A model generated the notes under the pieces. It saw only the letters and a list, made by a program, of their open reading frames with translations, was not told where the DNA came from and searched no databases. A stretch of 64,000 bases of DNA from Amphiscolops sp. MND2022. Its lineage: Eukaryota. How positions within the stretch are numbered: the stretch's first letter is position 1; each line of letters begins with the position of its first letter. Location: contig OZ076409.1 of NCBI GenBank assembly GCA_964187785.1, forward strand, positions 46,316,001 through 46,380,000, in the 5' to 3' direction. This document shows, one piece after another, positions 14,595 through 52,033 of this stretch. The position numbers and the translations under genes were made by a program.

Positions 14595-15917
14595 TTCAAA
14601 AGTTTGTTCTATGGATTGACAGTTTGTTCTAAGTTGAGAACAAAGAGCATTCTAAAAGGACCAATATATCTGAAAAAGACTGAATCACCTGATTCAAGAG
14701 CTTCTAAGGCTTTGTTTCTTTCGGAAACATCAATATGTATAAAATCTAAGATTACGGGCTATTCAGACATAATTTGAGCACATCAATTTTGATGAATCAG
14801 AGGTTAGTAAGTGCTATAATTTCAATTATTGGTTTTCTCGTTCACTATCATGTTTCGGGGTGTTGTTTACTAATGGGGTATTCTTGCAGCTTTATGGTCG
14901 AAACGTCCAGAGTCCATGACAAAATTAATCACTAATGCAATCGAACATAATTGATTTTAGCTAAACCTCGAGCATTCGCCTCCTTTCATTGCTCATATCT
15001 AATTTTCAAAGTTTTTTTTTCCGAAATCAACTATCGTATCGCCGTCGTAATAATTTCTCCTTCCAAATGAATTTTAACCAAAAAGCTATCATTACAAACA
15101 ACAGATTGTAAGAATTTTGGCGAAATTTTTTAGAGAAAAACTATCTACGAACTATTGATTTCTTAATTCCTGCCTATATCTCAAATATTGAGATTCCCAA
15201 TTTGGGAGAAATCATTTCTCAGCCGCAGTGATGATCATATTATAGTCTTCTTAATAGACTATAATAGTAAAACTAATTAAAGCTACAACTAATTTTTGCG
15301 CTATTTATAGCGAATTCTAATATAGAATGCTATAATCAGAATAATAGCGTCAGTTACCATTGACAGACCGGGTTCTTCCAAAATGCAAGACAAGAATGAC
15401 CATTTCTTTCTAGGCTGGCCCAGTATGCTCTTGGTGTATTCCTTCGCCAGCAATTACAGAAAGTTTTTTTCTAAAGCAGAGTTTTTCTAACTTGTCGGTT
15501 GGACAACGATACCGAATCTTAACAGAAAAGACAAAGCTTCCTCCATACAACTCAATAACTTTTCTCCAGGAAGATGAAGTTATTGGTCCACCTTTCTCCA
15601 GGATGATGATGATGATTTCTTTCACTGCCTACTGTGGGCATTTTAGTGTCCATAGAGGTACTCTGGCTTTGTTTTGACCTCTCTATAATTTCTCTGATGC
15701 GCTTTCTTCGGAGCACTTGTTCTTTTTGCAAATTCCATTCGTCTTTATGATAACCAGCTACTTCTGTTTGTCTCTTATTTCTGCTGCCATAATTTGAGCT
15801 TCGGGTTTCTTATAATCTTCTTGCAAATTGTTGCTAATTCTGGATTCCTCGAACAGTTCAAAAGGTTTACTGTAATGTCTGCACGCCCGTAACCCAGGTT
15901 CTTCCAGTTGAATTCAT

Positions 15918-18900: not shown

Positions 18901-19128
18901 TTGCTCGGATATTTCAACCAGTTGTGTGAAGCTCAGGCCATTCTTGACGAGAATTGCACATCCTTTGTTCTGTTGTTCATTGGTGTCTTGATAAACCGCC
19001 ATGTTATAGATGTTTGCCTTCTCGAAGGTCCCCGTTTCTTGCAGGCAAACTGTCCTGGGTTTCTTTCGAAGATATACTGATTGAGCAAAAAACGGCTTTT
19101 CTCTGAAAATTGACAGAACATATATCAC
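15918..19128 (-). pseudogene. LINE ORF2 (APE endonuclease + reverse transcriptase), disrupted
   Basis: CLQET, MGDFNARH..W, SKIDF (APE); YRPISI, FIDFEKAYDSV, GLPQGSVISP, KFADD (RT); three ORF pieces. Confidence 0.9.
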
Positions 19129-19160
19129 CGCTTGGGGTCACTTTCTCTCTGGACGTGGAT

Positions 19161-19870
19161 TCACCATGCATTCTGCTGATACAAAAATGTTTCCATTTTT
19201 TCAATGTAGACTGGACAATCTATTGTTCCCGCTTTATGGTTCCCCTTACAGTGATGGCATTTAAACTCTGTTACGGTACATGATCGTGTGTCATGCTTGT
19301 CGTCACACATCCCACATCGAACCTCTTTAATGCAGTACCGATGCACATGGCCATATTCTTGGCAATTCGCACACTTGATGACTCTGGTCTTCCTTTTATA
19401 CTCCTCAACTATGTATCTCTGATTGTACATACTCAACTTGCTATCTATAGCTTTTGTAGGCTCTGCCTACTTTTGAAGTCAACCTTCACCATTCCGATAA
19501 ATTTATTGTCCGTTTTCCTTCTGAAAAGCTCGCACTGTGCGTTGGGGAAGCTGTCTTGAATTCCTGTTACTATTTCCTCTTCCGTCAGGTCTTCGTATAT
19601 ATGCTTGACTACACCGCATGTGTTGATCTCACCCGGGGTTTTCATGCCTTTGTTCCCTCCGAAGAGTTCTTGTGTCCAACCATTTTCAAAAGCTTGCGCT
19701 GCTTGTTCGTCTTCAAATTCAAAAAGGATTGATCCTCCACTGGTTACTCTGCAGTGCTTTATAATAATTCCTTTGAATGTTTTGTTGAACTCTCTCCTGA
19801 TCGCGACACTTGTTCTGATCTCCAGGAAAGTTTTCTCCAGGAAAGTTGAGAAAGTATTTTCTTTCAGCAT
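19161..19870 (-). pseudogene. LINE ORF1 (gag-like, three zinc knuckles), disrupted
   Basis: CANCQEYGHVHRYC, CGMCDDKHDTRSC, CHHCKGNHKAGTIDC; split into ORFs 19445-19918 and 19161-19436. Confidence 0.85.
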
Positions 19871-20058
19871 CTGAAAACAAACAGCATAGAGATATGAAAA
19901 AAGAAAGCATACCAACAAAGGCTGAAGGGACCCTCGGATAGTCTGGGGAGAACCACAGGAATGTACGTCTAACGGATTATAGTAAGTTCGTAGACTTCCA
20001 AAAACTTACTACAGGTAACTTTGTAGAACTTTTTCTACAAACTTGCTCTAGTTTTAAA

Positions 20059-22063: not shown

Positions 22064-23008
22064 GTTTTAAACTGAATTCTAAACAAAACTGAATGAAGGG
22101 GATTTTCACTACCGTTAGGACTTCGCCAAGCAAGACGTCCGCTGGCGGCCCTTGAGCACTAGTAAAGGTGGCGGTGTAGATGAAGTCTCAGGACAATATT
22201 GAATGATGATTGGCCTATCTGACGTTGTTCCATTTTTAGTCAGCGCTTCATGATTTTTCATACCACACTACAGACCAAAATAGTTCCACAAAGTTCTACA
22301 AAACTTTATGATGTCAAAATGAAGCATTTGACCTAGCGAACAGAATCAAAAAGGTTTTTCCTTCTTTTCCTCGTAACAACAGCCTAATTGTTGTGATAAA
22401 CTTATTAAATAGCTTATGCAAGTGAACGCATTCGCTCTTTAATAAGTCATTTCAGTTGTTCTCGTGTAAAGCCCGGCCTTTTGGGTGTCCCTTGCAAAAG
22501 GGTTTTCAGAAACCGGCCCGAACTGGACACTTATATATGGATAACTACAGCAGGAAGTACCCAATTACAATCTGCTAATCAGATATCATTCATTGGACTG
22601 GACCTTCACTGGTTGCAGAATAGCCTCGGAAGATTACACCTGGACCTGGCATGGACGTTCACTGGTTTGCAAAGGGTTCCGTCAAAATTGATTGTTAGTT
22701 CGTTCTAAGTTTATTTCTATCCATCTGTTGCTTTTTCTTTCTACTATTCCATTCATCTGTTGCTTTTTCTCCTGGATGGTTTTAATCATTGGTGCTAGTT
22801 CATTGGACAACATAATTAAACAATACCCACAACGATCAAAACACAGCATCTGTCAAAGTCGATTGCTATTAGAGGCCTAACCTTCGATACCCGCAGTTCT
22901 CGAGGGCAACGAGCCCAACGAGTGGCAGTAAATAGGTCGAATTTTTCGGGTCGAAAGGATAGAGGTCGAACCTTTTGATCAAATTGCAGGGATCGAATTC
23001 GAAACCGA

Positions 23009-25270
23009 CTTCAAAGGCATGCTCTTTTTCGGAGACCTGAATGCCAGACATACATACTGGGGAGACACAACCGCAAACGACCATGGAACCATGTTAGAGG
23101 ATAGAAAGAACGAAAATATCGCTGTAATCAATAATGGTGAACCTACTTTCCTAGCATCAAATGGTAATAGCGTCATCGACTTCGGCATTCTGACTCACTC
23201 CTTATCTTCAAAACCTACATGTCTTACAACAGACGATGAAACGGAACTTTTCATTGGTGCTCCAGCCAGAGTACACATTCTGGTCTGTCTGGAGTTAAAA
23301 TTATCAGCGGAACCTCATGCAGTACAATCCAAGACGTGGATAGAAAAGGCGGATTGGAAATCTTGGCAAAACTTTTTAGAACAAGAACTTTTTGACCCAG
23401 TAAATTGGAATGATGACCCCGGGCGCTGCTGGGAATCTTTTAAAGGCCTACTGACGGAAGCTATGAATCTCTACATTCCGACAAAACGAACCAATAGAAA
23501 CAGCAAGCCGTTCTGGATTGAGGAAATCAGCAAAGCTAGTTATGAATCAAGAGCCTTGAGGCGCAAGTTCAAATACAACTCCAACTACCGAAACGGTCAA
23601 CATCTAGCACAAGCTAGAGATAATTTCAAAAATGAACTGTCTGAGAGCACATCAACATGGATGAGTAAAATTTTAGCCGAAATGGGACATTAACACGGAA
23701 AACAGTTCTGGTCAATTTACAATAGGCTTTTCAAAAGAAAAACCTGCGGGATGGGCCCTATTAAAGACTCCGAGGGAAAATTGCTCTGCGAACAAAAGGA
23801 TATTGCCGAACATTTGAAACAGACTTTCTTTGAAGCCGTTCATTTAAAAAAACCACAGATATGACAAAAGTCTTCGTCAAAAAATCGAGAAGTATCTGCA
23901 AACGGAAGTCCGTATCTCTTTCCAGGAGGAGACATTAGACATTAGCAAGACGAGTTCTCACTCATTGAACTGAAGAAAACGTTGAAAATTGTAAAAAGCA
24001 GCTCGTTCGACAACGATCTCATCCATCCCAAAATTTTGCAAAACTGAGGAGAAAATACCAAGTTGGCAGTTCTCGAATTATTCAATATGAGTTGGACTAA
24101 ATCAATTTGGCCATGGGGAACTTCAAAGATCATTTTCATCAAGAAAGCTGGCAAGAGCGCTTATGACCTTGCATCAATCTTTCGACCTATATCAATAACA
24201 AGCCACATTGGGAAGTTGTTCGAAAGGATGATCGAGCGACGACTGCGTACCTTCCTTGAGGAAGAGAGTATCATCGAAGAAGAACAAGAAGGGTTTGAAA
24301 GTAGAAAGAACACGCTTAGATTCCTCTACAGAGTCGATTTCGAATGTGAATTGGTAAGAACGCATAAAGAATCTGCTGCACTTCTAAACGTAGACATTGA
24401 GAATGCTTCGACAGTGTGTGGCTCGATGGCTTGATCTACAAATTGAAGAATCTGAAAATCAATGGGAAAATGATAAAAATGATTGACGCCTACCTTCGTT
24501 CCAGAAAAGGACAGAATAACCTAGATCCTTACACATCACCCCTGTTCGGTATTCATATTGAAGAACCACAAGGAAGGGTTCTCTCCCCTGTGCTTTTTAT
24601 TATTTTCATCTCTGATTTCCCATCCAACTCATTGAAAAGCTTTAAATTTGCCGATGAATCTTCAGTGCTTCTATCCGGACAGAAAGTTACTGAATCGTTC
24701 AAGGACACCTGCTTAGATATAGAAATATGATGTAGACGCTGGAGATGGCTGTAAACGGGTCGAAAACCGAAATTTTGCCTTTAACCAACTCACCCGAAGA
24801 CTTTAGCCAGATCAATATCAACGGAGAAAAAAGCAAAATTAGCGGAACCACGAAATCACTCGGGCTCAACATTGATTCTAAATTCAACTAGAAACAACAC
24901 ACTGAAATCTAAGTTGCCAAAGCTGCGCGAAACTGGCATATCCTCCGAAAACATTGCAGCACAAAGTGGGGCATTACCATTCCGACCCTAGTCTATCTTA
25001 ACCTATATGTCATACAACCCCAAGTTTTATTTAGAGCACCAATATGGGCACAAAAGAATATCAAATCACTACAACTTTCCCAAAACAATATCCTGAGATT
25101 GATCTTCAAAAACTGTTTCTCGCCACCTATTAGTACAGCTGAAGCTCTCATAGGGATCCCACCAATCGACCTTTTCTGCCAAAGTCTAGCAGTCAAGTTT
25201 TTATTCAAAACAAAGCAAAAAATAACATGTTGAATTTGTTTTATATATATGGATATTGAAGATCCCAAAG
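23009..25270 (+). pseudogene. Second decayed APE-RT LINE ORF2 (5'-truncated)
   Basis: FFGDLNARH..WGD, NGNSVIDF, FRPISITSHIGKLFER, PQGRVLSP, FKFADE; many stops and frameshifts. Confidence 0.85.
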
Positions 25271-28065: not shown

Positions 28066-29417
28066 TGTACTGGACCCGTAGAGCGACAGTGAAAGATGAA
28101 CGTAGGCAGCGCCAGACTCAACATCTAGTAGTCGCAGCAACCAGACCAAGAGCGTCTAGCTAGCTATTGAAGAACTTGTGCAAACATTTTTCAAAACTTT
28201 ATTTGTTAAACTACTGCAGTCATGTAAATTTTTTTAATGAGGCTTTAGTGAATGAAGTTGTTTGTGAACGATAGGAAAGTCAAACTAAAGCAAAACTTGG
28301 ATATTAGTGCCTAAAATCCTATTGAATGACTAATTGGTTTCTATGTAATATCATTTTTGAGATATGACATCATCAATCAGTCACATGTGCTGATGACTAT
28401 GCGTCATTATGCGGTTCGAGATATGTTGAGTACTCACCAGTATACGTTTTTCAAAATTGAATTAGGCGGCTTCCTACGGATTGAAGCATAATGAATACTC
28501 GTCATCAGACACTTTTGACTACGCGGCACTGTGCGGTTTGATAAGTGACACATACTCGAAACTATACGTTTTTCGCTTTAGTTAATCGTTCACTGTATCC
28601 TTCTCATGTATTGATAAGTCCAACCACTAATACAACTTCATACATCACTTTGTGTTGTTTCCAGATCCTCTAGGGTCCTGCTTATTCTTTTGAACGTCAT
28701 GTAGCTAAGATATAAATAACCTGATGTCATAATGATGAACTTCTATTTTTATGTTTTCTGATGATGATTGTGATAAAAAGGGATGCATGTTTTTTTTAGT
28801 TTTCTTGAGATTCTGGTGCTGGAATTCCTTCATTCTTTGATTTCACTTTGTGTAAAACAGTTGCTCTAAGCACTTCGCTCATCCTTTGTAAAACAATTCT
28901 TTCACTTGCATTGATTTCTCTTTGGATTTGAAATACCAGGATACAATTAAAATTCTTCCCCAGCAACTGAAAATACATTTTTACTTGAACAGAATGGGAA
29001 ACAAGAGAAATAGAAGGTCTAGAAGACTAGAAATTCCTTCCCACAGTAGAGAAGGGAATGTAGAAACCCCAAACCTAGGTATTATAACTTTAACTAATTC
29101 TAATTTAGTTGATCAAGAAAACTTAGGTCCTAACATTTTGGAGAATAAACTGACTGAACCCAGTCTAATCAGCAATGAAATCCAAGTTTGGACACAAGAA
29201 ATGGAGAAAAGAAACAATGACAGGATAGGAAAAATGAGAGAAGAAATTGATGGTGAATTTGAAGCAATCCTAAGAGAGATCAAAACTAGCAAAAATGCAT
29301 CTACAATCACAAACCCAAGATCAGAATCAAATGGAAGACAAAACACTCAACCGCGGGGTCCAGAAGTAGGTCTATAGGAATTCACGCATCAGAAAATGAT
29401 AACTCAGACTCTTAAAA
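28066..29417 (+). repeat. 5' LTR (3' end lost with the gag deletion)
   Basis: Colinear with 41823-43177 from TGTACTGGACCCG to aactcagactcttaaaa. Confidence 0.8.
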
Positions 29418-29423
29418 TCTCAA

Positions 29424-29978
29424 ATGATAGAGAATTTACTTTATGCTAAGATGCCTCCCCACCTCAAAATGTCCATTAACCAAGCATACCTTGAAACTGG
29501 CACCTATAATCAAATTGTCAAACATCTCGAACGAGAGATGGAACTAAATGGATTGGAATCCGATGAATCTCTGGTCAAAACACAGATGACCGCAACCAAA
29601 AAAGAACAGAAAACAGAAAAAACCAACAAAAAACAAACTGACAAACCCAAAACACAAATGCCAAAATCATTCTCAAATAAGACGCTTAAAGACGGCCAAT
29701 GCCGTTATTGTAAAGAAGAGGGCCATATAATGACCGATTTCCCAAAATTAGCCAAACGACGCAAACTCCAGGAAGATCCGGATGCGGACAAATGTGAAAA
29801 TTGTAACACAGCCGGACATACTGAAGAAAACTGCTACTTTGGCGAGAATATGGAAAATCGCCCACCCAAATGGAACCTCACAAACGCCCCGAAGAAGGCC
29901 ATTGAAAATTATCAACAAGCCAAAAATCACATCAAAACCGAAATGAACGACTCCAACAACCCTCATCGAAGGATTTAA
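29424..29978 (+). pseudogene. Gypsy gag C-terminal part with zinc knuckles
   Basis: YAKMPPHLK, LEREMELNGLE, CRYCKEEGH, CENCNTAGHTEENC. Confidence 0.8.
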
Positions 29979-30045
29979 ACTAGAAACGCCACACCTCAAC
30001 AACAAAAACGCCGCAATAAAACCACAAGATGACTGGCAGCATCAA

Positions 30046-33000
30046 GTGGAAACCATAAATATTCAACTCAAACGACTCACTACTGAACCTGACTCTACTC
30101 CTCCAACACCTGAACAATCTGAAACTCCGAGTACCTCTCCAGATCAATACTATGAACTCTTCAGTGATGCACCAGACAACTACTTCGAACAATCCACACC
30201 ACAAAACCAACCCCAAATTGACCTAATATCAGAAAACCAACACAAAACCATCACGGTAAAATCAAAACCATCAAATTCTTCTTGCAATGAACAAAAACGA
30301 CCCCTTCTTGATGATGACCTCACCGAACATATACAGTTTGATAAGGAACGAAACTTATCATACCTTCCAATATCAACCTCTCTTACACTTAAGCGTAAAC
30401 GCCACATGTACTACATGCCAATGGACTTCGAAAAATTAACTCTCGACGGACTCATTGATACAAGAGCCCTAACGAGTGCAATTTCCGAACAGGACCTCAA
30501 CAAACTCAAACTGTTAGCAAATGATGCAATCCGAGAAACTGGCCCACCGCCAAATTTTCAAATCATGGCGGCCAACGGACAATTAGAAGTCCCAATTGGC
30601 ACTGTCTTACTTGAATTTGAAGTGGCTGACTTTATGTTAGGAGAAAATTTCATCATCATGAAAAATTTACCAAACCCATTGATTGGCCTTTGTTTCCTAC
30701 GTCGGAACAATGCCACCTTCGATGTCACCCAAGGCATCCTGACATTTCCATACCTTTCAATGTAATTCAAACCTGATACCCAAACAACTATGCGATAAGC
30801 AACTCCACTGTTAGCAGAAAACACCTATACTCTACAACCTGGCGAAACCCTGCCATCGCCAGCAGAATGCCTCACCTCCTGGACCATGACGCAACAGGAG
30901 TTGTAACCGCATCTCCACAATTTGAACACCACGATAGCATCTTCATTACGTCGTCACTCAGCACGGTCAACAACAATGCCATCGGGTACAAAATCATTAA
31001 TTTTTCTGAACTACCATACACATTTCCTCTCGACACTCACCTGGCGGATTTCAAAATACTGGCGCCAGAACAGGTCAAATACATACAACCAGTGGATCCA
31101 GCCTTACTATCGTTCATGATAAAACATGAAGATACATCAGAAATCTACCTAAATGAACTCCTGAAAGTCCCTCCACAAAATCAAGAACAAAAAACTTACT
31201 GGTTCCCAACTCCAGAGGAACCAGGTGATCCTACAACAAACACCCCAATTCAACAACGAATATATGACGAGCTACTCGAATTACAACGACTTGAAAAGTT
31301 AAACTCCGAAGACGATGAAGAATCGCGCAAATCATTTCTTTCCAACTTTGACTGGTCTGAAACGACACTCAGCCCAGCAGAACGACAACACATCGAAGAA
31401 ACTCTCATTGAATTCCATGACATTTTTGCTGGCCATCGTTTTGACATTGGCACAAATCGGGAATTCAAGGTAAAACTCACTCCCAACGATGACAGACTAG
31501 CGTACAGCCAAAGTCTGTCAACTCTGATCAACCTCAAAGTTGACATTACAGTAGAACTTGCCCTTCTACACAAATACGGAATCATAACAACCTTACCCTT
31601 CTCCAAATATGGAAGTCCAATTTTCGCTCAACGTAGACATAACGGACACCTTAGACTCCTTGTTGACCTCAGGAAAATCAACAATCTAATAACCGAAGAC
31701 TACACAAATAACAAACACCCGGTAAGCACATTGTCGGATGCAGCGCAACATATGGCAGGAAAAAAGCTTTTCTGCAAATTGGACTGCTCCCAGGCTTACC
31801 ACTGCCTACAAATGGCTGATTACCAATCCATACAAAAGCTCGCTTTCAACTTTGCCAGCTGAACCTTCGCTTATAGGCGATTGGCACAAGGCCTAAGCAG
31901 ATCTCTCTCAACATTTTCTAGTTTCATGAGAGAGTACTTGGATAAAGCAATCAAAGCGGACCAACGCGTTCAATACGTTGATGACATTGGCATCGCTGCA
32001 AACAATGCTCAGCAACAAAGCGCCAACATCAGAACAGTGTTTGAATGCATAAGAAATGCTGACCTTAAACTTATGATGTCCAAATGCCACTTTGGCGTTA
32101 AACAAGTTGACTTCTTGGGCCGCACAATTACACCCGAAGGAGTCGCCCCACAAGCAAAAAAAGTCAAAAATTTTCTGACCAAACTCAGATTTCCCAAATC
32201 CAAAAAAACCCTCCAGCGATATATAGGCTTCCTAAACTACTATCGCAACTACATTCCACGACTCTCAGAACGGCTATCACCGTTCTTTAGGCTCCTCAAG
32301 GAAACATCTAATTTCTATGTGCCAACAAACTTAGTAGAAAATTTCACCAACCTCAATAAACTCCTCGAAAATTCATGTCAATTGGCATTGAAACAACTCC
32401 TTAAGGACAAACAACTCAGAATCTTGTCCGATGCCAGCTTTACCGCTGCGGGATATGCCATTATGATAGAAGACGAACCAAAACAGAAATTGCAATCAAA
32501 ACGCAAAACATTTGCTCCCATAGCATTTGGATCCAAAACTTTCAACCCGACACAAACAAAAATGTCAATATATGCCAAGGAATTCCTTTCCATATATTTT
32601 GCCTTCGTTGAATTTGGACACCTCATGTGGGGTAGCACATTCCCTGTAATCGTGTTCACCGGTAATAGATCAGTAACCCGATTTTTTCAAGCAAAACTTA
32701 TTCCACCAGCACTTTGGAATGCATGCGATTATGTTTTACAATAGAATTTTGTAATCGCCCACGTTGCTGGATCAATGAACACTGCAGCTGACTTCCTCTC
32801 ACGCACTGAAGTCAATCCAGTTGAAAAACTTGAAATGACCGTCCGAAATGACATACACACCAAAGCAATTGAAGTCAACATACAATCATCACGGATTGTA
32901 GAAGAAGAGCACATTTACATTCTCCCCGATGATGAACTCGACGAAAATCAATTATGGCAAGAGAAGCAAAATATCCGAGACCAAACCCAAAATGAGACAC

Positions 33001-34850
33001 ACAATGAACCCTAAATGAAGATAACCGAACTCCAAAAATTCCATAAACCTACTTCTGGTCTAAACACTTGTTCGGAAGGACGTTTCCGAGACAATGCGAA
33101 AATTCGCACTGAACAAAATAACGATATTGTTCTCAGAAACTTACGAGCAAAAATAGAGGGACACCCCTTCGATGAACATGATTTGGCATCTGACTATAGA
33201 TACCATCATTACCTTCAAAATATCGCCAGAATTGAAATAAAACAAGAAATTCTCACCCGGAAGTACTATACAGACACGGGAACCACCTCCCATTACCAGA
33301 TATTACTTTCGGCTCAACTTTTGGAAGAATTTTTTCAAGCCCTACTTGGTCACAACTCAAACGATTCAGGCATTACAAAAATGATTCACGAAGCCCGACA
33401 AAAATACTATTACCCATGTATTGCTAAATACATCAAAAAATGGGTTACCAACTGCCAAATTTGCATACAAACCAAACGAATTAGCAATGATTTCCTTAGA
33501 ACGGAACTTCTCAACTGTCCAGAATGGGACCTTGGTCCATAAGACATTCTTCAGATGGACATCCTACCCAATCTCTCACCAAGTGGGGTCTATGATCATA
33601 TAATCACAACGATAGACGTTTTTTCAAGGTATTTGTTTGCATATCCAGCAACACGTATCACAGCCTCTGCTGTAGCTCGAGTAATAATGGATATCCTTTG
33701 CAAACACACATATCTACCAACTACAATAATTACGGATTTGGGCACACAATTTAATGCCCAAGTGACACGCAACAATGAACCATGCACAAACCATTGGAAG
33801 CCTAGAAAGTACCCATGCATCAGTGAAAACGCATCTTAAAGCTGCCACAGGGGAGTTCCGAAACAATTGGCACAAGCATCTTCCGCTGGCAGTTTTAAAC
33901 CACAACACTACCTACCATGCAACACTTGGTTGTGAGCCCTAACGAGTCTTTCATGGGCGAATACCCCATACCATACTCGATTACAAGCTCGGATACAACC
34001 CTAACCCAAAATACTTACCACAAACAGATGTAGCTGAAGAAGTGCAGAGAAGAAAGAAATTACTCCTCGACCAAACGAAAAAGAACATAATGCAATCCTA
34101 TCTCAAATACAAAGCATATTATGTTAGGAAAGCAAAAGCATCATCACTTGAAACAACGGATTATTGTTACGTCTTAAACCGGAAGGCGGATACCCAGGCA
34201 ACAAAGATACCCTTTCGAGAGTTTAGATGACAAGGCCCATATAAAGTTGAGAAAGTCCTTCCTAACAATAACTACCTTGTTAGACGATTAGGAACCAACA
34301 AGACGCAACTTTTGCACCGAATTCGTTTGCGGAAGTTTACCCCCCAAGCTCCTCTTGCAGACATTTTCGTTAGAGAAACTGATTGGCAGAAAGATGATCC
34401 ACTGCCAATAGCGCAAGACGATCTATATGCCCAATCCTGGAATACAAATTTTGGTCCCAATCCGTTTGAGGACAACCCCCCAGAGTATTGTCAAAATACA
34501 GAAGATATTGAATACCTACCAATTACAGCACCCGAAAATAACCACCCTCCCTCCCGCGAAATTTCAAAAAATAGAGGCGGGAGCCCAGTGGAACAGACCA
34601 CTGAACTAGATCAAAACCATGAAAATCGTGCCGACGAAACTCCACAACAATTAAAGGAAGATGATGAAACTAATACCCAAAAAACCCAAAAAGATACAAA
34701 TACTTCAACAGATAATGATATTCAGAAAACCCCAGAAAACTAAAACTCCCAAAATACCCCATTGCAAGAACAACCCATAAATACTCGTTGTGAAAAATAC
34801 AACTTACGCCCTAATCCCAATCCAAACTACTCTGATAGAAATAGATATCA
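30046..34850 (+). pseudogene. Gypsy pol (protease, RT, RNase H, integrase) with many stops and frameshifts
   Basis: LIDTRALTS (protease), LRLLVDLRKIN, KLDCSQAY, QYVDDI, ILSDASF, IDVFSRYLFAYP, IITDLGTQF, GPY-like C-terminus. Confidence 0.92.
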
Positions 34851-35052: not shown

Positions 35053-38000
35053 TCATAATAAGTTCTTCTTGCCTTTAGCATGTTTGGCATTAGTCTTCTT
35101 GGGACTGCTACCAGTTTTGGATCCGGAACAACGGTCAAGAGTAACGCTGACTCTACTTAGAGTAGTGTCAGGGGACGGGGAACTGTTGGCACTACTTGTT
35201 CGACTGATACTTGGAGTCGTAGTAGTAGATGAGATAACAGGTCTATCAAACCGCAAAACTGACTTTCGATACCCCGTTTCCAGTTTGCCCAGTAATGATG
35301 TTTTCCTCGCAACATTTTTTTTTCGAAAAATTCCAAATTGAGAACTTCTTGTCTGACAACAGGTCTGCTCCTCGCCCCAATAAACGAAAGGCTCGGTTGA
35401 CAGTCTTGGCATTCCTATACAGGCTAGATACGTGGGGCACAGTGCTGTAAGATAATTGAAGGCTCCTCACGCAGGATTGGAAAGTTTCACTGTCGGATTC
35501 TAACCCTGGCATAAGGACGCTAAACTCCAAAGGCATATCCTTTTGAGGGGATAAACACAAGCACGCAAACTTGTATACTCGAAGCAATTCGGGACAACAC
35601 TGGAGCTTATATTGTGAGGACATAAACTGAATTCAACAATCGTACTCTGGGACAGGTTCAGCTCGCAGTTTGGTGACAAATGACCGGTATTGACTAATGA
35701 TCTTTACTTTATCACCAGAAGTATATAGTCCAGTGGACACAAAATGGCTAGACAGCTTCTCAATTGCAACCGCATACTTGGCTTCAGGTCCATCAAAGAT
35801 GACCGCAGAATCGAACGCCGATATTCCTCTAACAAGTTTGGATCTAACGTTTTCCTGCTCTAACAACTGCTTACACGAAGTCTTATTAAAACAGATCGAT
35901 TGCTCCACGAACTTGCAAGGGCGAGCCAATTTGCTTGCTGAAACCAACTTGTGAAAATCTTCTTTGAGCACATATTCATCTGTGGTCTTAAAAGGTAAAT
36001 CGCTCCGGTTCAAATCTAGCTGCAAGAAGTTATCCCAGTCAGAGATGTTTCCGATAGTTTCGTCTGGTAAAGTAGTCTGCAGTTGGCTATAAGTGAAGAC
36101 AGCAAACTGACTGAATACTCGGAAGCCTCCTTCGACAGCCTTTTGAATCTCAGAAAAGGCGGAGTTGTCTGAAACATAACGAACTGAATAAAGTGATGAC
36201 ATAGTTACGAGAGAGTGAATCATCATCAAGAAAGATCACTCAAGATCGCTTCATTGTTAAAACCACACGTGCAAAAATATCTTAACTAAAGGAATAGTAT
36301 ATGGAAAGAATTAATTACAAACTATACTAAGTGATTTTTAACAAAAAAAGATTGTCTATGCGGCATTGTACGCTTCGAGTGGTGGTGACTATACGTTACT
36401 ATGCGGTTCGAGGCGTGATGACTATACGTCACAATGCGGAAACTGCATTGTGGACTATACGGCACTATGCTGACAAAGACATGGAGACTATACGGCACCA
36501 CGCGGAACCAGCAGTGTTGTTTTGTTGATGCCAATTAAAGTTTATATGACCAGGTACACGTTGCCATGCGGGCTGAGTAGGTACGTGTATGCATCTGCAT
36601 GCGGAAACGGAAGATAAATAACGTTGTTGAAAGGAACTATTCAACATTGATCTGATCAATAGAATACTGGATTATTGCTCAAAATAACTAAAGAAGAACA
36701 ACTAACAGTGGTCTAGTACACATCTGATGACAAAGAGGCGTGGAAGATAGGCGCTGTCAAGACGGAAGCACTCATCTACTGTACTTGGCTATAACGAAAA
36801 CATTGAATTGAAAGTTGAAGCGTCAAAGAGTGAAGCAATAATTGGAACGGCAATTCATAAAGAATACTTACTTCACGCATGTGAAAACGATAGGCCGGGA
36901 GTCTCGCAACTTGGTTAAGGTGTTCTTGCACATTGTTCCAGTTATTGGAGAGGCTCTCTATGATTGAAGATGCAGCGTATAGGGAGTATTCTAGCCGGAC
37001 CACTCCCTAGAGAAAACAAGTAAAGGTTATGGAATGAAGTTTGATTACTTTTGCAACTCGAATGAGAATGCAAGTAACCTTATACAGGAGGGGCAGTTTC
37101 TTTAACCAGTCTTTGTCCAAAGCTGTTCTTAGCTTCATGAGCAAGAAATCTAGAATAGTTCGATGATCGTGCCGTTCTATGATCTGTGACATTGACAATA
37201 TCCCAAACTCTTTTCGAACTCCTCTGGTCCGTACGTTCGGACAATTGAGGGCTGATGGTCTCCTGGAAGACATATCGACAGACATTGGCTCATCTTCTCA
37301 TCAAAGTTAATGAGGGAAACACATGTTAGAGGGGTCTCAAAGAGGCTGATGAAAGACAATACCAGACTCAGAATTTTCTTTGGTAAAAGCATCCCACGGG
37401 GGCACTGCCCAAACACACACGATGGAGTACATTTCCTGACCAAAACCCAATGTTAACATACGTCATCGTGGTTGAATGTTGTACTGCTAGAGAATAGAAT
37501 CCGGAAGAAGTGATAGCAGTAGTACAATAGCCGATGAGTTAACGGAACATGTGCACCAGAATTCCCTGTAAACCAAACGAAACGATGTAAAATCCTATGT
37601 ACAGATTGGTAGTCTGGGCGTTCATGATTCAAATCTCTTAGGTGCCAAAAGAGTGTAAAATTTCTTGATAAGGTGACAAAATCAACAAGTAATATTACAA
37701 TACTAACGAAAAGTCGTTGTGGACTCGAGTTCTGCGAGCAGAAATGCGTCTCGGAAGTTAACTGGGAAAATTCATCATAAATCCCGGTCAAGCTTTTGAT
37801 ATGTCCTCCGTGACGAAGACCATATACGAGTATACTGATCTGTGACAGAATCTTGTCAGTAGGACTGATGTAGGAACTGAAATTGGGCACAGAATCCTGT
37901 CCTACAAGTGGCCGGCATGCATCTTGTTGAGGGACAATTGAATATGTGTCAGTGGCTTTTTTCCTTGCTTCTTTTAATGACACCCCCAATATCTGAACCC

Positions 38001-39007
38001 CATCTTTGTCGTAAAGAGCCATCCCTGAGATCTCCATTCGTATCCTATGCTCTTTTATCAGATGAGATTCGGTCTTGTATTGGGATAACAATTCTAGACT
38101 GCCCCTACTCAATAAAGAGAGTTCCACTTTGCACACCCGGCACCACCATTTATGGATATTCTTGTTCCTGTCATTTGGTCCGGTAGCCGAGAATTTCATG
38201 ATCGGGTGCTTTTTGAGCATCGCAGTTGTTAAGGAGTACTTCGGTAGCCTGCGTTTTCCCACGGAACGATCATCTGGAGGTGCTTGTGAAACAGTGTTAG
38301 ACGAAGTTGGAACACCAACATCCTCTTGACTAGATGTTAATAGCATCGTGGGCGGTTCTAGTTCATCAACGACCATGAAAGTAAAAGGTTGGTCGGCCTC
38401 GATCTCGTCATTAACTACAAATTCTGGTGGTATCCGTCCAAGAAAGTCATTTAATACGAGTAGATCTCTCCGTGTAATGTTGACACTACCGGGTATAATG
38501 GGGGAATCCCGAGATGTTCTGTCCTGGCTTGGTCATTCGGCTGGATTTCCATGTTCTCACTCTCTGGTAGTACATCTTGTCCTGGCGCCCCAGCACTAAT
38601 TTGGTCAAGTTCATCGTTGAGTCATTGGGAAATTATCTGGCTATATCGAGTATAAATTGATTGGATTGTTCCAGGTGCAACGTATTCCTCATGCATTTCT
38701 TGAATAATTCCGACGAATGTTTCTTCCGTTGCTCTAAGTGGGGTCGTATTGGGTTCGGGGTTAGTCCTGCTCGTCGACGGAACCTTACCGCTCCCAAGAC
38801 TTTGAGAGTTCACAGGCTCAGCAACCGAAGAATGCAGAGTAACAGTACAGGCGTCGGCAGTGGTGCTTTCATCATATTGTAACGCTGGAGTTCCAGGCGT
38901 TTCTTGGGCGTCAGTGGTATCGGTCTTACTAGGAGATGAAGATCGCAAGGGGGTAAACGTTTTTGCAGGAGAATGATCTGATGACAATCCACTGGTCTCA
39001 GGCTCAA
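35053..39007 (-). pseudogene. Spliced antisense gene inside the Gypsy element; BED-finger, hAT-transposase-like protein (decayed in this copy)
   Basis: ORF pieces 38622-38987, 37453-38376, 37177-37443, 37007-37285, 36776-37003, 35633-36229 and 35246-35623; three junctions are short GT-AG introns, the rest are stops or frameshifts; WWCRVC...H finger; hAT-like C-terminus. Confidence 0.6.
36354..36508. repeat. Five-unit array with an exact 33-bp period
   Basis: Core starts at 36354, 36387, 36420, 36453 and 36486 (G[A/T]CTATRCG..AY.ATGCGG), separated by variable ~13-bp linkers. Confidence 0.85.
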
Positions 39008-39750
39008 CTGAAACAAACGTTCTATTAATAAAATAGATTCAACAAAATTAGCGAGCAGTTATTCGATAGGAAATTGACTGAAACCGGACGCGGGGACAGG
39101 AAATGCATAAAAGACCGGATGCTGCTGAGAAGTTGGAAACGGAAACGTTTCAAACATTTTGAAACTGGTCTGAAAATATGAATCCCTTTTTCGTTCACAA
39201 GCCTGGCCAGCTTGGAATAAAACTCAAAAGTTTACTATCAAAACAAATCAAATCAAATTCAAAATTAAATGAAATTCAAAACAAAATTCAACAAATGAGA
39301 CGGTTAATGGAATTTGATAGACAGTAACCTTTCAGAAGAAGTCTAATTCAAAAGGGAAACAAAGGAACTGAAACTGGAAGTGAAATTAACAGAAGATAGA
39401 CTGGGAGATTGTTTCGTAGCTACAAATACTAAACTAATAGACTGACTTAACAATGATATAAGTTATTCAAAACGAAAGTGAAGATTTTAATCTAGACTGA
39501 TCTTGTGGCAACAGAAATGATTTTGTCTGATAAAACGATGTAAAGGCGTGGCGTTAATATAGCATGAGAAGGCAAAAGAGCAAACGAAAATGATTGAGCG
39601 CAAATATGTGTGGGGAATACTGCAATATGATTGGCTGTTTAAATGTCAATCGCGTCTGCCAGCGTGATTGATTGACTCATTATGACTTCTGCAAACAATG
39701 CTGATATATATGAATTGTTTTTATGCTGATTGGAATGATTTAGTAAGCGA

Positions 39751-39900
39751 GAGTATGCGGCAGTATGCGGATCTACCAATGACAAGTATGCGCCAGTATG
39801 CAGTTTATTAATTTGGATTATGCGGCAGTAAGCGGATCTACTAATGATGTGTACGGCAGTATGCGGATTACCATTTTGGACTATGCGGTAGTATGCGGAT
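39751..39900. repeat. Five-unit array with a ~32-bp period of a related TATGCGGCAGTATGCGG core
   Basis: Units at ~39751, 39784, 39816, 39847 and 39879. Confidence 0.8.
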
Positions 39901-40790: not shown

Positions 40791-41849
40791 ATGAATAACT
40801 TACAATTCGCAATTGAAGAAGACACCCTGTACTCGCCTCTGTCACCTGACGTTATCGAAATTTCAAGTATTTCCGATAATGAATTCTTGGTAGAACCGGG
40901 AAACGTACCTCAACTGCTAGACAGGTTCAGAGCTAATACGGTAGATAGGAATCCTATGACCGCATTTGTGGGATCTGCTGCAGCATTATTGTTCCCCTCT
41001 GGAGGAAATGGAGTACCCCCTCAAGATACAATAGACGTCCGAGGAACGAGAATTGAAAGGGAATTAATGGACCTAATTGAAGGGGATCTGCCATCCACTG
41101 CGTCTTTTTTGCCTTCATTTATTGACAGCGAATTGGAGCCGGAAAACGAATCCTCGAATGACCTGAACCCTGATACTGATACCAGGCTAAATAACTACGG
41201 TTGTCCGACTGCGGCGATCCTTCCTTCCCCAAGGAACGCTGAACACCAATCTGATACCGCGAGTCAGCCAGTCCTAACTTACCCACCGAACTATCATCCA
41301 AACTCTTCAGATTTCTACCCTTGGGATGGAAATACAAACAACGAACGAAACCTCACACCAAATGCGAGTCAAGATGAAGGGCAAGCAAGTGTGTTAATTT
41401 TACCCAACTACAACGAAACCCAGAATGCCCCAATGTCTAACGCAACCCCCTTAGTGGTCCAATTGCCTCCACGAGGAGCTCCGAATATTCCGCCTAGAGG
41501 GTCAATTCCAATACACCCAATGGTGCAAGTTGGATTTACGTTTTTTGTGGCACTCAGTAGAAACATATTATTTATGCCGATCAACGAGAGAGACAACTGT
41601 AGGCTATTCCCAACAGTTATGCCCAACGTGGCTGGCATCTGTGAATACTGCAGCAAAACCTATGAACAGATCGCTTTGGAAACCCTTGGGGACTACCTTG
41701 CAGTTACAGCCTACGACGACGAGACTGTCAGGGACCGCGGGGTCCGCTCCAGAGCTTTTATAGATGGATTTGAAGCTGCCCTCTTCATCTTTAAAAGAGC
41801 GGGACTGTTCCAGCCATACAGCTGTCCTGGACCCGTAATGCAACAGTGA
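40791..41849 (+). CDS. Intact 352-aa orphan ORF in the env position of the Gypsy element
   Basis: ATG in aaaATG context; uninterrupted frame; Pro/Ser/Asn-rich middle; C-terminal CEYC motif; stop lies inside the 3' LTR. Confidence 0.65.
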   Translation: MNNLQFAIEEDTLYSPLSPDVIEISSISDNEFLVEPGNVPQLLDRFRANTVDRNPMTAFVGSAAALLFPSGGNGVPPQDTIDVRGTRIERELMDLIEGDLPSTASFLPSFIDSELEPENESSNDLNPDTDTRLNNYGCPTAAILPSPRNAEHQSDTASQPVLTYPPNYHPNSSDFYPWDGNTNNERNLTPNASQDEGQASVLILPNYNETQNAPMSNATPLVVQLPPRGAPNIPPRGSIPIHPMVQVGFTFFVALSRNILFMPINERDNCRLFPTVMPNVAGICEYCSKTYEQIALETLGDYLAVTAYDDETVRDRGVRSRAFIDGFEAALFIFKRAGLFQPYSCPGPVMQQ

Positions 41850-43301
41850 AAGATGAACGTAGGCAGCGCCAGACTCAACATCTAGAAGTCGCAGCAACTA
41901 GACAAAGAGCGTCTAGCTAGCTATTGAAAACTTGTGCAAACATTTTTCAAAACTTTATTTGTTAAACTACTGCAGTCATGTAAATGTTTTTAATGATGCT
42001 TTTGTGAATGAAGTTGTTTGTGAACGATAGGAAAGTCAAACTAAACCAAAACTTGGATATTCGTGCCTAAAAATCCTATTGAATGACTAATTGGTTTCTA
42101 TGTAATATCACTTTTGAGATATGACTTCATCAATCAGTCACATGTGCTGATGACTATGCGTCATTATGCGGTTCGAGATATGTTGAGTACTCACAAGTAT
42201 ACGTTTTTCATAATTGAATTATGCGGCATCCTACGGATTGAACCATAATGAATACTCGTCATCAGACACTTTTCACTACGCGGCACTGTGCGGTTTGATA
42301 AGTGACACATACTCGACACTATACAGTTTTCGCTTTGGTTAATCGTTCACTGTATCCTTCTCATGTATTGATAAGTCCAACCACTAATACAACTTCATAC
42401 ATCACTTTGTGTTGTTTCCAGATCCTCTAGGGTCCTGTTTATTCTTTTGAACGTCATGTAGCTAAGATATAAATAACGTGATGTCATAATGATGAACTTC
42501 TATTTTTATGTTTTCTGATGATGATTGTGATAAAAAGGGATGTCGTGTTTTTTTTTAGTTTTCTTGAGATTCTGGTGCTGGAATTCATTCATTCCTTGAC
42601 TTCACTTTGTGTAAAACAGTTGCTCTAAACCCTTCGCTCATCCTTTGTAAAGCAATTCTTTCACTTGCATTGATTTCTCTTTGGATTTGAAATACCAGGA
42701 GACAATTAAAATTCTTCCCCAGCAACTAAAAATACATTTTCACTTGAGCAGAATGGAAAATAAGAGAAACAGAAGGTCCAGAAGACTAGAAACTCCTTCC
42801 CACAGTAAAGAAGAGAATGTAGAAACTCCAAACTCAGGTAATATAACTTTAACTAATTCTAATTTAGTTGATCAAGTAAATTTAGGTCCTAACATTTTGG
42901 AGAATCAACTGACTGAACCCAGTCTAATCAACAATAAAATCCAAGTTTGGACACGAGAAATGGAGAAAAGAAACAATGAGAGGATAGGAAAAACGAGAGA
43001 AGAAATTGATGGTAAATTTGAAGCAATGCTAAGAGAGATCAAAACTAGCAAAAATGCATCTACAATCACAAACCCAAGAACAGAATCAAATGGAAGACAA
43101 AACACTCAACTGTCGGGGTCCAGAAGTAGGTCTATAGGAGTTCACGCATCAGAAAATGATAACTCAGACTCTTAAAACGAAGATAGTCATCCTATCAGAG
43201 CATCGAATATGCACGAACTAAGAAACCCGGCAAAACCATTTTGTCAAAATAGATTCGGATTAGATGAAACAATAGTTTCAAATGAAGACTCTGAGGAGGA
43301 G
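41806..43301 (+). repeat. 3' LTR (runs into the gap)
   Basis: Copy of the 5' repeat; purine-rich aaaagagcggga (41793-41804, candidate polypurine tract) precedes TGT at 41806. Confidence 0.75.
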
Positions 43302-46170: not shown

Positions 46171-46332
46171 AAGTCTGTTGTAGGGTCATGAAAAAATTTT
46201 AGATTTTGAGATGTACATACATCGTTTTTCGCGGCACAGTTGCTGCTTTCTACGGAAAAATCATCCAGCATGGCATGAAACTTTTCAGAAGCAAACCTTA
46301 AACAGAAACTAATAGAAACATAAGAATTAAGG

Positions 46333-48055
46333 AACAAGACGGGAACGTCTAAAGTCGGCGCTAAATCTAAGGCTCAAAAAGCGCAAAACCTTTTTTTGGA
46401 AAAAAAACTTGAAATTTTCGAAAAAAACTTTCTTCCAGAAAATGTCACACAGTGCCGAAAAATGTAAAAGAGGGGACCATTTTTAATTTCCAAACATGCA
46501 TTCTGTTGCAAAATAACAAAAAACTCTAAGGGGGGACCTTTTGGGGACATCAAAAAATTTTCGAAAAAAAAGTCGCACAGTGCCGAAAAAAAATCAAAAG
46601 TGGGGACCCTTTAGCCTCGGCCGGTTTTTTAGGTTACCTTAAAAATGGAAGGAAAAAATGAAAGGGGGGACCCTTTGGAGACAAAAAAATTTTCGACAAA
46701 AAGTCGCACAGTGCCGAACAAAATTCGAAAGGGGGGACTCTTTAGTCCCGTCCGGTTTTGTAGATTACCTTGAAAAAGTAAAAAATGAAAGGGGGGACCC
46801 TTTGCACTAAGTTTGCGTTGGCCCCTTTGCCGGACTCGGCGCCTTAGGTGGTTTCAGGATTGTTTCTAAAAAGTGGACCGATCAGTGTGAGGATTGTAGT
46901 CTGAAGAAAAAACAAGCCGGGAACAGCCCAAGTCGGCGCCATATCTAAGGCTCAAAAACAGCAAAAGGACTTCAAAGTGTCAAAGTATTCTCTTCTACGG
47001 TACCGGAAAAACCCAAAAGTTGAACCGAATTGGCGCACCAGAGGGGACACTTTGAGATTTTTCATCCATTCTGTGGCAAATCATCAAAAAAAATTGAAGA
47101 AGGGGCACTTTTGGTGAAAAAATTTTTTTTGAAAGAAAGTCTCACAATGCCAAAAAAACTGAAAGGGGGGACCTTTTGGGATTTTTCAATACCGTTCTGT
47201 CGGAAAACTCCAAAAAAAATTGAAGGGGGGACCCTTTGTGGAAAATTTTTCTCGAAAAAAAGTCTCACAGAGCCGAAAATACTCTAAGGGAGTACCCTTT
47301 GGCCCCTTTGAGTTCCTTAGATGATGTAAAAATACTGCTTCGCAAGCTTTTGCGCCAGTATTTTAAATTTGCTGAGTAAGAATTGTAAGATTTTAAGATT
47401 GTAAGAATTGTAAGAAAAGTGGACCGATCAGTGTGAGGATTGTAGTCTGAAGAAAAAACAAGCCGAGAACGGCCAAAGTCGGCGCCATATCTAAGGCTCA
47501 AAATTTAAAAGGGGGACCTTTCGGGCTTTGTGAAACTCCAGCTGGTTGCAAAAAATTTTAAAAAATTGAAGGGGGGACCCTTTGGAGACATGAAAAAATT
47601 TCCCAAAAAAAATTTTAATGAGATTTTTGAACAGTGTCACAGTGCCGAAAAATGTAAAAGGGGGGACCCTTTGCGATTTTTTGACATCCATTGTGTTGCA
47701 AAACATCAAAAAAAATTTGAAGGGGGGACCCTTTGGGGAAAAAATTTCAATCCAAAAAGTTTCAAAAAGTCGCATAGTTCCGAAAAAAAGTGGGGATTCT
47801 TAGTGTGATTTCGAGGTTGTGGACGTCTGTTTTGTTTTTTCTTTTCGTTTTGGACGCCCTTCTGAGGTTGGAGTTGTTGAGGTTTGAAGTTGTGGAGGTT
47901 GTTGAACAAATGAACAAAAAGTGGACCTTTCGTGTCTAAAAAAAAACTACCCACTGTAATAGTCGGGCACATTTTCTACTAAAATGCGCCGACTAAAAAC
48001 AGTCACTGCTATAGTCGGGCATTTTTCCCTAAATGGAAAAGCGCCGACTAAAAAC
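46333..48055 (+). mobile_element. Nested or tandem copies of a high-copy non-autonomous repeat (Helentron/DINE-1-like)
   Basis: AACAAG...AAGTCGGCGC heads at 46333, ~46911 and ~47457; internal GGGGGACCC units; atagtcggg...gcgccgact hairpin-like ends. Confidence 0.55.
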
Positions 48056-49892: not shown

Positions 49893-52033
49893 TTTTTAGT
49901 CGGCGCTTCAAGAAGTGAAACCCGACTATTATAGTGACTTTTTTCTTTTTTTCAATCCACACGAACCGGCCAAAGTAGTTCTTGATAATTCTATGAAAGT
50001 TTTATTATCCCAAATTGAATCACTTGGCCTAGCGAACTGAACCAAAAAAGTTTTTCCTCTTTTTCTGCGTAACATGCAGTACCGGAAGAGACTGAAGGAT
50101 CCCCTTCAAGTTTTTTTGACATTGTGAGACTTTTTTTCGAAACAAAATCCCCAAAAGGTCCCCATTCAATTTTTTGATGTTTTGCAACAATGGATTTTAA
50201 AAATCCAAAAGGGTTCCCCTCTTAGTTTTGTCGGAATTGTGAGACGTTTTTTGAAAAAAAACCTCACCAAAGTGACCCCCTTCAAATTTGTGATGTTTTG
50301 CAACAATGGATGTTAAAAAATACGAAAGGGTCCCCCTTTCAGTTTGGTCGGCATTGTGAGACTTTTTTTTCGAAAAAAATTTCATCATGAAAGGGTCCCC
50401 TTTCAATTTTTAGATGTTTTGCAACGATGGATGTTAAAAATCTGAAAAGATACCCCCGGCGCGGAAAATTGGTCAAACTTCTTGGGTATTTCAGGTACTG
50501 AATACTTGTAAGGAATACTTGTTAAGTAAGGAATACTTGACAGTTTGAAATCCTTTTGCTATTTCTGAGCCTTAGATATGGCGCCGACTTATGCCGTTTC
50601 CGGCTTGCCTTCTACACGAACTGACCAAAATAGTTCTTAAAAGTTCTACGATACTTTTAGGTGTCAAATTGGACCATTTGGCCCAGGAACTTAACCAAAA
50701 GAGTTGTTCCGTTTTTTTTTCAGCGCAACATACAAAACCGGGCGAGACTAAAGGGTCCCTTCTAGTTTTTTTGGCATTGTGAGACTTTTTCAAAAAATTT
50801 TAAATGACTTTAAAGGGTCCCCCTTCAATTCTTTTTGATATTCAAGACAAATCCCCGGCGCGCCAATTTGGTCCAATGTTTGGGTTTTTCGGGTACTGTA
50901 AAAGAGAATACTTGACACTTAGAGATTTAGATATGACGCCGACTTATGCCGCTCCCGGCTTGTTCCTGATACAACGGAGGCGGCTGGAAGGTGTCTAGTT
51001 CTTTTGAAATAGGGGCGCAGTTTTTGAAATAGAGATAGGATGTTTCCATGAAAAACTCCTGTTTTCAAACATCTGCCTCCTCCTTGCTATACCGCAGTAT
51101 AGTTTGGGTATAAGGTCAAAAGTTCGGATATAGCACTTTACTCCAGATATTACGAGGGATATTACACCAAAAAAAAAAGAAAGAAGGGACCCTTTAGTCC
51201 CGTGCGGTTTTGTATGCTGCGTTTAAAAAGTAGAAAAAAAGGGGTTCCAGCTTGTTTAAATTTCAACAATTTTTTGGACCAGTTGCAACGGGGACATTTT
51301 GGTGTCCTTTCCTTTTGCAAACAATAAAATTTTTGGTTTAAGGCGAGAATGGAACCTACGTACTCCCGTCAACAGGACGGGAAATCCGCGTTAACCAAGT
51401 GGCAGTCAGAAGTTGCTAGCTTTGCCATAATAGAAGAACTTGTAAAACTATTTTGGCAACTTAAGGTGTATCGAAAGAAACTGACGGAAAGCCATGGCTA
51501 TAGACGACTCTTTTCTAAAGAAGAGCGCCAATTTAAAATGACGCAAACCTTTGATACATTGATCATGAATGGTGAGCAAGTTCAAAACTTCCTACACAAA
51601 GTTACAGATTTGTTACTGTTACAGTCACTAGTTTTTTTTGAAAGACCAACTTGAAGCGACGAACGTTAACGCTTAGTATGTTCAATTAAAGGAACTTCAA
51701 CCAATACCCAGCAAACGCATCTAACTTATTTCGAAGGGTTTCCTTTTTGATTTTTACTATTTAAACGTAACCTACAAAACCAGAGAGGACTAAAGGGTCC
51801 CCCTTTCATTTTTTTGGCGCTGTGCAACTTTTTTTGAAACTTTTTTGCCTCCAAAGGGTCCACCCTTTGGTTTTTTACTTTTTAAACGTAGCCTACAAAA
51901 CCGGATGATTGTAAAGGGTCCCCTTTTCTGTTTTTTCGGCACTGTGCGACTTTTTCTTGAAAATTATTTTGTATTCGAAGGGTCCCCCTTCGTTTTTATT
52001 TGAGCCTTAGATATGAAACGTTCCCGTCTTGTT
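49893..52033 (-). mobile_element. Same high-copy repeat family, mostly in the opposite orientation
   Basis: tttttagtcggcgc..., GGGTCCC units, gagccttagatatg...cttgtt ends. Confidence 0.6.

Follow-up and report, generated by a model that had tools for sequence, protein, structure and literature searches.

A 64,000-nucleotide stretch of the Amphiscolops sp. MND2022 genome (GenBank assembly GCA_964187785.1, contig OZ076409.1, positions 46,316,001 to 46,380,000 of the forward strand; hereafter the window, meaning this whole stretch) contains a Gypsy long terminal repeat (LTR) retrotransposon, which extends from window position 28066 to ~43300 and carries, between pol and its 3' LTR, a gene on the opposite strand that is predicted to contain introns. 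This antisense gene is an old, selected and co-inherited part of a Gypsy clade, and it probably derives from a hAT transposase. An earlier reading made from the letters of the window alone (the sequence-only reading) had interpreted the locus as a Gypsy element that captured a catalytically dead hAT-derived gene, and our analysis supports that interpretation. The fuller explanation that we favor, in which the gene is a fixed component of the clade and encodes a hAT-derived, catalytically dead, DNA-binding self-regulator, has in our estimation an even chance of being correct.

We searched the 1.07 Gb genome from which the window comes at the DNA level, which gave 202 candidates (40 of them scored), and retrieved 20 element copies of 20 kb each, on which the comparisons of LTRs and target-site duplications are based. 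Four protein queries returned at least 113, 151, 229 and 141 matches, and loci were sampled across the identity range. Pol lies downstream on the opposite strand in 19/20, 12/12, 31/32 and 5/5 loci of four samples, so that the check proposed with the sequence-only reading, whether the gene is always inside this Gypsy family, found pol on the expected side in 67 of the 69 loci fetched far enough. The other two retain 3'-LTR sequence, or a second accessory open reading frame (ORF) of the element, here called ORF C, with the gag start; ORF C is also present in all of the twelve further loci whose excised sequence was too short for pol to be reached reliably. Orientation is equally constant, with the gene on the strand opposite the integrase in 30 of 30 loci scored. 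The identities of integrase and exon 3 vary together (Spearman 0.91 across 30 of 37 loci, seven having been left out for incomplete matches; 0/2000 permutations reach 0.91), a correlation among relatives with a common history that shows co-inheritance only, and the integrase and exon-3 trees have their main clades in common. No free-standing copy of the gene was found among the loci fetched, a sample biased to top-scoring matches in which a rare free copy may have been missed.

The ratio of nonsynonymous to synonymous substitution rates (dN/dS), whose calculation between copies had also been proposed, is 0.01-0.15 for the core and exons 3-6 in five copy pairs where dS was estimable (unsaturated), pointing to purifying selection, and 0.18-0.36 for the low-complexity N-terminus. 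The sequence-only reading had seen no terminal inverted repeats (TIRs) around the gene, and none emerged here: the longest inverted match between the cassette borders is 10 nt in the window, and in two other copies it is 12 nt or absent. That the segment is a simple nested hAT, or a decaying passenger without function, is exceedingly improbable; the window copy is indeed broken, but the position and strand of the gene are unchanged even in the most distant clade, where pol is 52-57% identical to that of the window's lineage (four better-kept loci), and the protein is conserved although its catalytic residues are gone in all members. Because of the linkage, the co-variation, the absence of TIRs and the low dN/dS, we regard the gene as a co-inherited Gypsy part and have rejected a nested hAT insertion. 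An env-like role was likewise rejected, on the ground that the gene is antisense.

The antisense gene is predicted to consist of six exons that encode ~1,080 amino acids (Table 1). The sequence-only reading had placed introns 2, 3 and 4, a donor (36706) and an acceptor (39008) correctly, and the peptides that it quoted from the product are found in the sequence. The claim that these are canonical introns withstood comparison: for each of nine splice sites, 17-20 of 20 loci have the canonical dinucleotide (8 of these loci were re-cut from the first 20 copies). Exons 4 and 5 have the same length in all 21 aligned copies, including the window (135 and 82 nt), while the lengths and sequences of the introns drift. 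Between one copy and four other subfamilies, DNA identity is 53-82% in exons and 43-61% in introns, with 0-1 gapped positions in exons 3-6 and 0-279 in introns. The donor at 36706 is in phase with the acceptor at 36169 (both phase 1), and therefore 36168-35059 is the last exon. Intron 5 is missing exactly at the predicted junction in one subfamily (three loci, L075, L076 and L101) and is retained in three relatives checked; exon 6 as a separate gene was rejected on the basis of this intron-less fusion and the phase match. A weak search turned up no protein in which exon 6 forms part of a longer chain. Exon 1, which is deleted in the window, was located in 17 of 20 loci (with an ATG, 115-118 nt and matching phase), and the summed exon lengths give ~1,075-1,081 amino acids, with exon 1 present and no internal stop in 10 of the 20. 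Judged by eye, the distant homologues P0160, P0173, P0181 and P0194 continue across the point of intron 2 with zero insertion, and the intron positions of the most distant clade are identical. From this conservation we infer that the antisense gene is spliced. One subfamily has a GC rather than a GT donor at intron 1 (L045, L046, L050, L051, L054 and L055).

The hAT ancestry of the gene is suggested by structural comparison. An AlphaFold model of the homologue P0181 (profile E 1.3e-27; pLDDT 82.9) has, as in hAT transposases, a predicted BED-type finger and helices before an RNase-H-like core. In a Foldseek search with this model ranks 1-11 were all Hermes, with a best E-value of 5.2e-4 vs 1.4e-2 for HIV integrase, and VIA aligned 123-142 residues to Hermes 111/133-270, reaching the helices before the core, compared with ~80-90 residues for integrases. 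A zf-BED match was obtained in 5/86 family members, of which only P0177 is above the cut-off (22.0 vs 20.6 bits), and the finger ligands are kept across the family (Cys in 42/42 and 40/42 sequences, His in 41/46 and 46/46); the window protein itself has no Pfam match. In the Atlas, two distinct parts of the window have hAT-family clusters as weak neighbours, and these come in the correct order; one of the two parts is exon 6, which weakly matches Dimer_Tnp_hAT / FAM200-GTF2IRD2 clusters (score 0.90, low recognition). Similarity to hAT, named as a check in the sequence-only reading, was thus found in the predicted structure, through the homologue model, and not in sequence profiles.

Catalytic positions were assigned by eye from the genome's own hAT ORFs. 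The Gln in exon 3 that the sequence-only reading had remarked in place of an Asp does occupy the presumed first catalytic position, at which Glu occurs in 6/52 family members and Asp is outside the six commonest residues. At the end of strand 4 Gly is found in 40 and Asp in 6 of 50 sequences, and Glu is not listed at the presumed third catalytic position (139 sequences). As aligned, then, the acidic DDE triad is not conserved in the family. Nor is any CxxH conserved in the columns after strand 5; a CxxH after the core is seen in the genome's hAT ORFs, and we take it to be a hAT feature. A resemblance, seen by eye, between SCVRSLQ (35476-35456) and the ERSFS helix in those ORFs was unsupported by hhalign and is no more than a lead. 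The genome encodes hAT transposase ORFs of 597-697 amino acids with DDE-type motifs by eye (L093-L097), and PF05699 has at least 150 scored matches.

Several observations weigh against this ancestry. No Pfam hAT family matches the window exons or 27 exon-6 sequences (0/27, including PF05699), and hidden Markov model (HMM) and hhalign comparisons with the genome's own hAT ORFs, which are mostly Ac-like by motif and may be the wrong subgroup, were at the level of reversed controls or not significant. The Atlas recognition values (2272 and 1908) fall below the 2300 mark, the Foldseek TM-scores to Hermes are 0.26-0.28 with high root-mean-square deviation, and in VIA Hermes has a Z of 5.3-5.5, which kinases, Argonaute, Pelota and integrases equal or exceed, the transposases ISCth4 and Tn5 aligning over longer stretches (178 and 171 residues). 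The modelled fold is moreover that of a homologue ~20% identical to the window's subfamilies, not of the window protein. Sequence searches of the PDB with four profiles found nothing significant, Pfam scans gave no hAT family above cut-off save zf-BED in one homologue, genome searches with PF14291 and PF18658 found nothing (controls being equally silent), and no locus was confirmed when metagenome contigs were scanned with P0156. The missing sequence-level signal, the failure of VIA to single out Hermes and the low confidence of the exon-6 model (pLDDT 36, from 12 sequences) are what would be expected if the gene came from another DDE or RNase-H-fold protein (Mutator-like, another transposase, or a non-transposase) and its likeness to hAT were superficial. 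We consider this origin quite improbable, as Hermes leads the Foldseek list by a factor of more than 25 in E-value, a finger of BED type lies ahead of the core and two regions lead to hAT clusters in the Atlas.

The proposal that the hAT-derived product regulates its own element arises from a short motif. TAYGCGG has 18 matches in the window vs 4.25 expected (0/100 shuffles reach 18); of these, 13 are on the sense strand of the element and form four clusters, located in both LTRs, in the region upstream of the antisense gene and in intron 5. Nearly all sense-strand matches of 9 full-length copies occupy the same places (LTRs, intron 5, upstream region), with none in intron 5 of two, and one other clade has an array in intron 3 in place of intron 5. 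In 15 of the 22 loci examined, a CCAAT box and a CCACGCC box separated by 67-87 bp also lie upstream of the gene, which suggests that these CCAAT/GC-type boxes form an internal promoter of the antisense gene. The putative promoter and the five introns look cellular, and the catalytic acids are lacking in all members, so their loss predates the radiation; hAT domestication is moreover frequent, with many products favoring CGG-containing motifs (available text of PMC8097297). The element might thus have captured a host gene that was already domesticated and intron-containing (ZBED- or CGGBP-like) and that now acts as a decoy or mimic. This we regard as unlikely: among the loci fetched, which are the best-scoring candidates only, no copy lies outside Gypsy, and the best 150 of 554 profile matches in the databases are without annotation, those inspected looking like the same family.

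Under the explanation that we favor, sense genomic RNA would be made from the 5' LTR, and the introns, read antisense in it, would remain unspliced and be retained through reverse transcription, a step underlain by the standard LTR replication cycle. The introns would persist through retrotransposition because the gene is antisense to the genomic RNA. A separate, spliced mRNA would start from the putative promoter that lies within the element, between the antisense gene and the 3' LTR, and we hold it very probable that the gene is expressed. The product of ~1,080 amino acids would comprise a low-complexity N-terminus, the BED-type finger, a helical region and an RNase-H-like core without DDE, with basic ends, and its finger would bind TAYGCGG in the LTRs, upstream region and intron, thereby keeping the element active in the manner of VANC or TnpA. 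A DNA-binding regulator is favored because the motif clusters resemble the targets of VANC, which form tandem repeats (PMC5735166, in part), and the CGG preference of many hAT-derived CGGBPs (PMC8097297); for self-regulation through TAYGCGG we see the prospects as evenly balanced.

On the other side of that balance, the stretches inspected from the most distant clade (L133 and L135) show no TAYGCGG arrays, and L076 has weak ones, although the gene is kept in all of these. Clades with different finger sequences have the same motif, as would be equally expected if a host factor recognized it, and ~600 residues beyond the finger are under strong selection, more than simple DNA binding needs. The conservation of the whole transposase-like scaffold beyond the finger, the basic stretches before the finger and at the C-terminus, and the survival of the gene in clades without visible motif arrays would also suit a hAT-derived protein that works in integration, tethering or targeting the integrase complex to chromatin or aiding nuclear entry, a function discussed for plant antisense ORFs (PMC7264820, in part). 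Such a role is somewhat unlikely in our view, the 12 target-site duplications found in 13 copies showing no evident common sequence.

The host element has the hallmarks of Ty3/Gypsy: LTRs with TG...CA ends, a 5-bp target duplication, a primer-binding site, a polypurine tract and the gag-pol order. Family LTRs are ~1.5 kb long and up to 99.9% identical within the 20 copies, an exact 5-bp duplication is present in 12/13 copies examined, and a primer site starting with TGG follows the 5' LTR in 12/13. The family is abundant, with at least 150 exon-3 matches in the genome, and, to go by its LTR identities, it is recently active. The LTRs of the window copy (28066-29417 vs 41823-43177) are 95.1% identical; its ends are damaged or in an N gap that takes the last bases of the 3' LTR at 43302, and a ~680-bp deletion at 29417/29420 removed the end of the 5' LTR, the primer-binding site and part of gag. 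Pfam matches in the gag-pol region are above cut-off for RVT_1, RT_RNaseH and Integrase_H2C2 and below it for zf-CCHC, gag-asp_proteas and Integrase_p58_C.

Table 1. Features of the Gypsy element in the window and predicted structure of its antisense gene (window coordinates).
Feature	Position	Strand	Remarks
5' LTR, truncated	28066..29417	+	~17 bp absent at start, by comparison with other copies
TAYGCGG cluster, 5' LTR	28408..28526	+	
gag (zinc knuckle) and pol, decayed	29403..34743	+	Gypsy order: protease, reverse transcriptase, RNase H, integrase
Exon 6	35059..36168	-	~370 amino acids; helical, putative hAT C-terminal part, basic S/K tail
Intron 5	36169..36706	-	538 nt, phase 1; contains 33-bp tandem repeat with TAYGCGG
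Exon 5	36707..36788	-	82 nt
Intron 4	36789..36871	-	83 nt, phase 0
Exon 4	36872..37006	-	135 nt
Intron 3	37007..37078	-	72 nt, phase 0
Exon 3	37079..37565	-	RNase-H-like core; FYSLAVQHST first strand at 37499-37470; frameshifted in window
Intron 2	37566..37707	-	142 nt, phase 0
Exon 2	37708..39007	-	S/T/P/E low-complexity N-terminus, basic stretch, finger, helical region; frameshifted in window
BED-type zinc finger (within exon 2)	38148-38062	-	
Intron 1 remnant	39008..39288	-	exon 1 with ATG and donor deleted at 39288/39287, net ~110 bp lost
Putative internal promoter	39545..39634	-	CCAAT box (39634), GCCACGCC box (39552)
TAYGCGG cluster, upstream of antisense gene	39754..39898	+	32/63-bp tandem repeat
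Second accessory ORF (ORF C)	40791..41849	+	352 amino acids; conserved C-terminal domain with CxxC
3' LTR	41806..43301	+	~1.49 kb, starts TG, contains gag start; TAYGCGG cluster 42165-42283

The antisense gene of the window copy is decayed, with exon 1 lost, indels at 38502, 37399, 37201-37200 and 35321, and in-frame stops; exon 6 is disrupted by one stop and one frameshift, and the first finger His, present in 41/46 aligned relatives, is a Gln. In agreement with the sequence-only reading, which had noticed the stops, this copy is probably non-functional. That reading described the antisense gene correctly but had not noted the acceptor at 36169, exon 1, the Gln in the finger or the sense-strand ORF C, which crosses the polypurine tract and terminates inside the 3' LTR. 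ORF C has a tblastn homologue in 20/20 loci and a dN/dS of ~0.15-0.19 (two pairs), with no Pfam match above cut-off.

Further observations concern the family and the rest of the window. The gag frame begins within the LTR (~42755-43301 and ~28997-29417), so that each LTR holds the first ~180 gag codons and, as a consequence, gag is interrupted in frame by the primer-binding-site region. Copies c19, c21 and c23 (L019-L024) look recombinant, with an LTR and ORF C that are c37-like (ORF C dN 0.02) and a pol and antisense gene that instead resemble the window's subfamily. Matches at G000:C13:16095975, 16111136 and 16126297 are spaced 15,161 bp apart, which, together with gag beyond the 3' LTR in L074, suggests head-to-tail tandem elements with common LTRs; such an arrangement is possible at L073-L074 and also at L001-L002, and copy c01 has ORF C sequence 5' of its 5' LTR. 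L133-L137 form a distant, abundant and apparently young clade with many near-identical open frames of 847-911 amino acids; they keep the gene with a much longer N-terminus, and some members are acidic near the first catalytic position. Elsewhere in the window are non-LTR retrotransposon remnants with endonuclease and reverse transcriptase Pfam matches (15918-20005, minus strand; 22932-23693, plus strand), an uninterrupted protein-kinase frame of 329 amino acids (13662-14651, minus strand; Pkinase E 4e-32) and mutually inverted arrays of ~115-130-bp repeats (~46300-47800, ~49900-52000 and also 400-700) that resemble foldback elements or miniature inverted-repeat transposable elements.

Antisense ORFs between pol and the 3' LTR, as here, are known from plant and fungal Gypsy elements (Grande gene23, RIRE2, Retand TRP28/PF04195, Boty), and they too are conserved, occur in most copies, have their own internal promoter (shown for Grande), with tandem repeats in that region, and have been given a proposed nuclear or DNA-binding role. 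The gene described here differs from them in its five conserved introns and traceable hAT likeness, whereas the origin of most such ORFs is stated to be unknown and similarity to other transposable elements is lacking (PMC7264820, in part). The word 'intron' does not occur in the main text of the Retand paper (PMC11963269), and TRP28 (PF04195) is not among the Pfam matches shown for our exons or homologues. With Hermes (PDB 8edg, 4d1q, 2bw3), the best Foldseek match, the protein has in common the order of its parts, namely a BED-type finger, helices, an RNase-H-like core and then a long, putatively equivalent helical stretch; unlike Hermes, it has no conserved DDE or CxxH, no TIRs or target duplication of its own, only 10-14% identity, and a long low-complexity N-terminus.

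The domesticated hAT proteins ZBED, CGGBP and FAM200/GTF2IRD2 (PMC8097297, in part) are similarly hAT-derived and catalytically dead DNA-binding candidates, but here the beneficiary would be a retrotransposon, and the gene is multi-copy and apparently mobile with its element. VANC (PMC5735166) and Spm TnpA (bioRxiv 10.64898/2026.08.24.746577), as far as their available texts go, likewise pair an accessory gene with motifs amplified in non-coding parts. A short motif amplified in non-coding regions was found here too, outside the most distant clade; those regulators, however, remain within DNA transposons of their own kind, whereas the gene here would have passed from a class II to a class I element, and its candidate motif shows no visible difference from clade to clade. 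TnpA itself derives from a transposase, within DNA transposons, and the main text of its preprint does not contain 'retrotransposon', 'LTR' or 'gypsy' as whole words (bioRxiv 10.64898/2026.08.24.746577). The ORF3s of rotifer LTR elements (GDSL esterase, DEDDy exonuclease, env) include comparable non-env, enzyme-derived genes downstream of pol, but according to the abstract they are not transposase-derived (PMC5408684). The accessible parts of PMC6431247 and PMC13547354 contain no such case, and in the full-text literature, as judged by titles and the starts of abstracts and excluding subscription papers, Repbase reports and supplements, we found no LTR element whose additional gene is either antisense and spliced or derived from a transposase. 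Each of the two ingredients, accessory ORFs in antisense and regulators descended from transposases, is known by itself; for the two combined, as here, we found no precedent.

Where the additional antisense genes of LTR elements come from and what they do has been named as an open question (PMC7264820, in part), and for the gene described here a class II transposase is a likely source. Its five introns would be stably inherited in an element that replicates through RNA. With a family this abundant and recently active, annotating the repeats of the genome without knowledge of the gene would leave a large gene family unrecognized or wrongly labelled. The putative DNA-binding domain and the motif that it may recognize form a pair open to testing. 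Taken together, transposases may have been domesticated not just by hosts and DNA transposons but also to the benefit of a retrotransposon: at slightly less than even confidence, we suggest that the element domesticated a DNA-transposon transposase whose product would be a self-targeted anti-silencing factor acting on CGG-type motifs in the LTRs and promoter, and that this may have helped the clade to spread.

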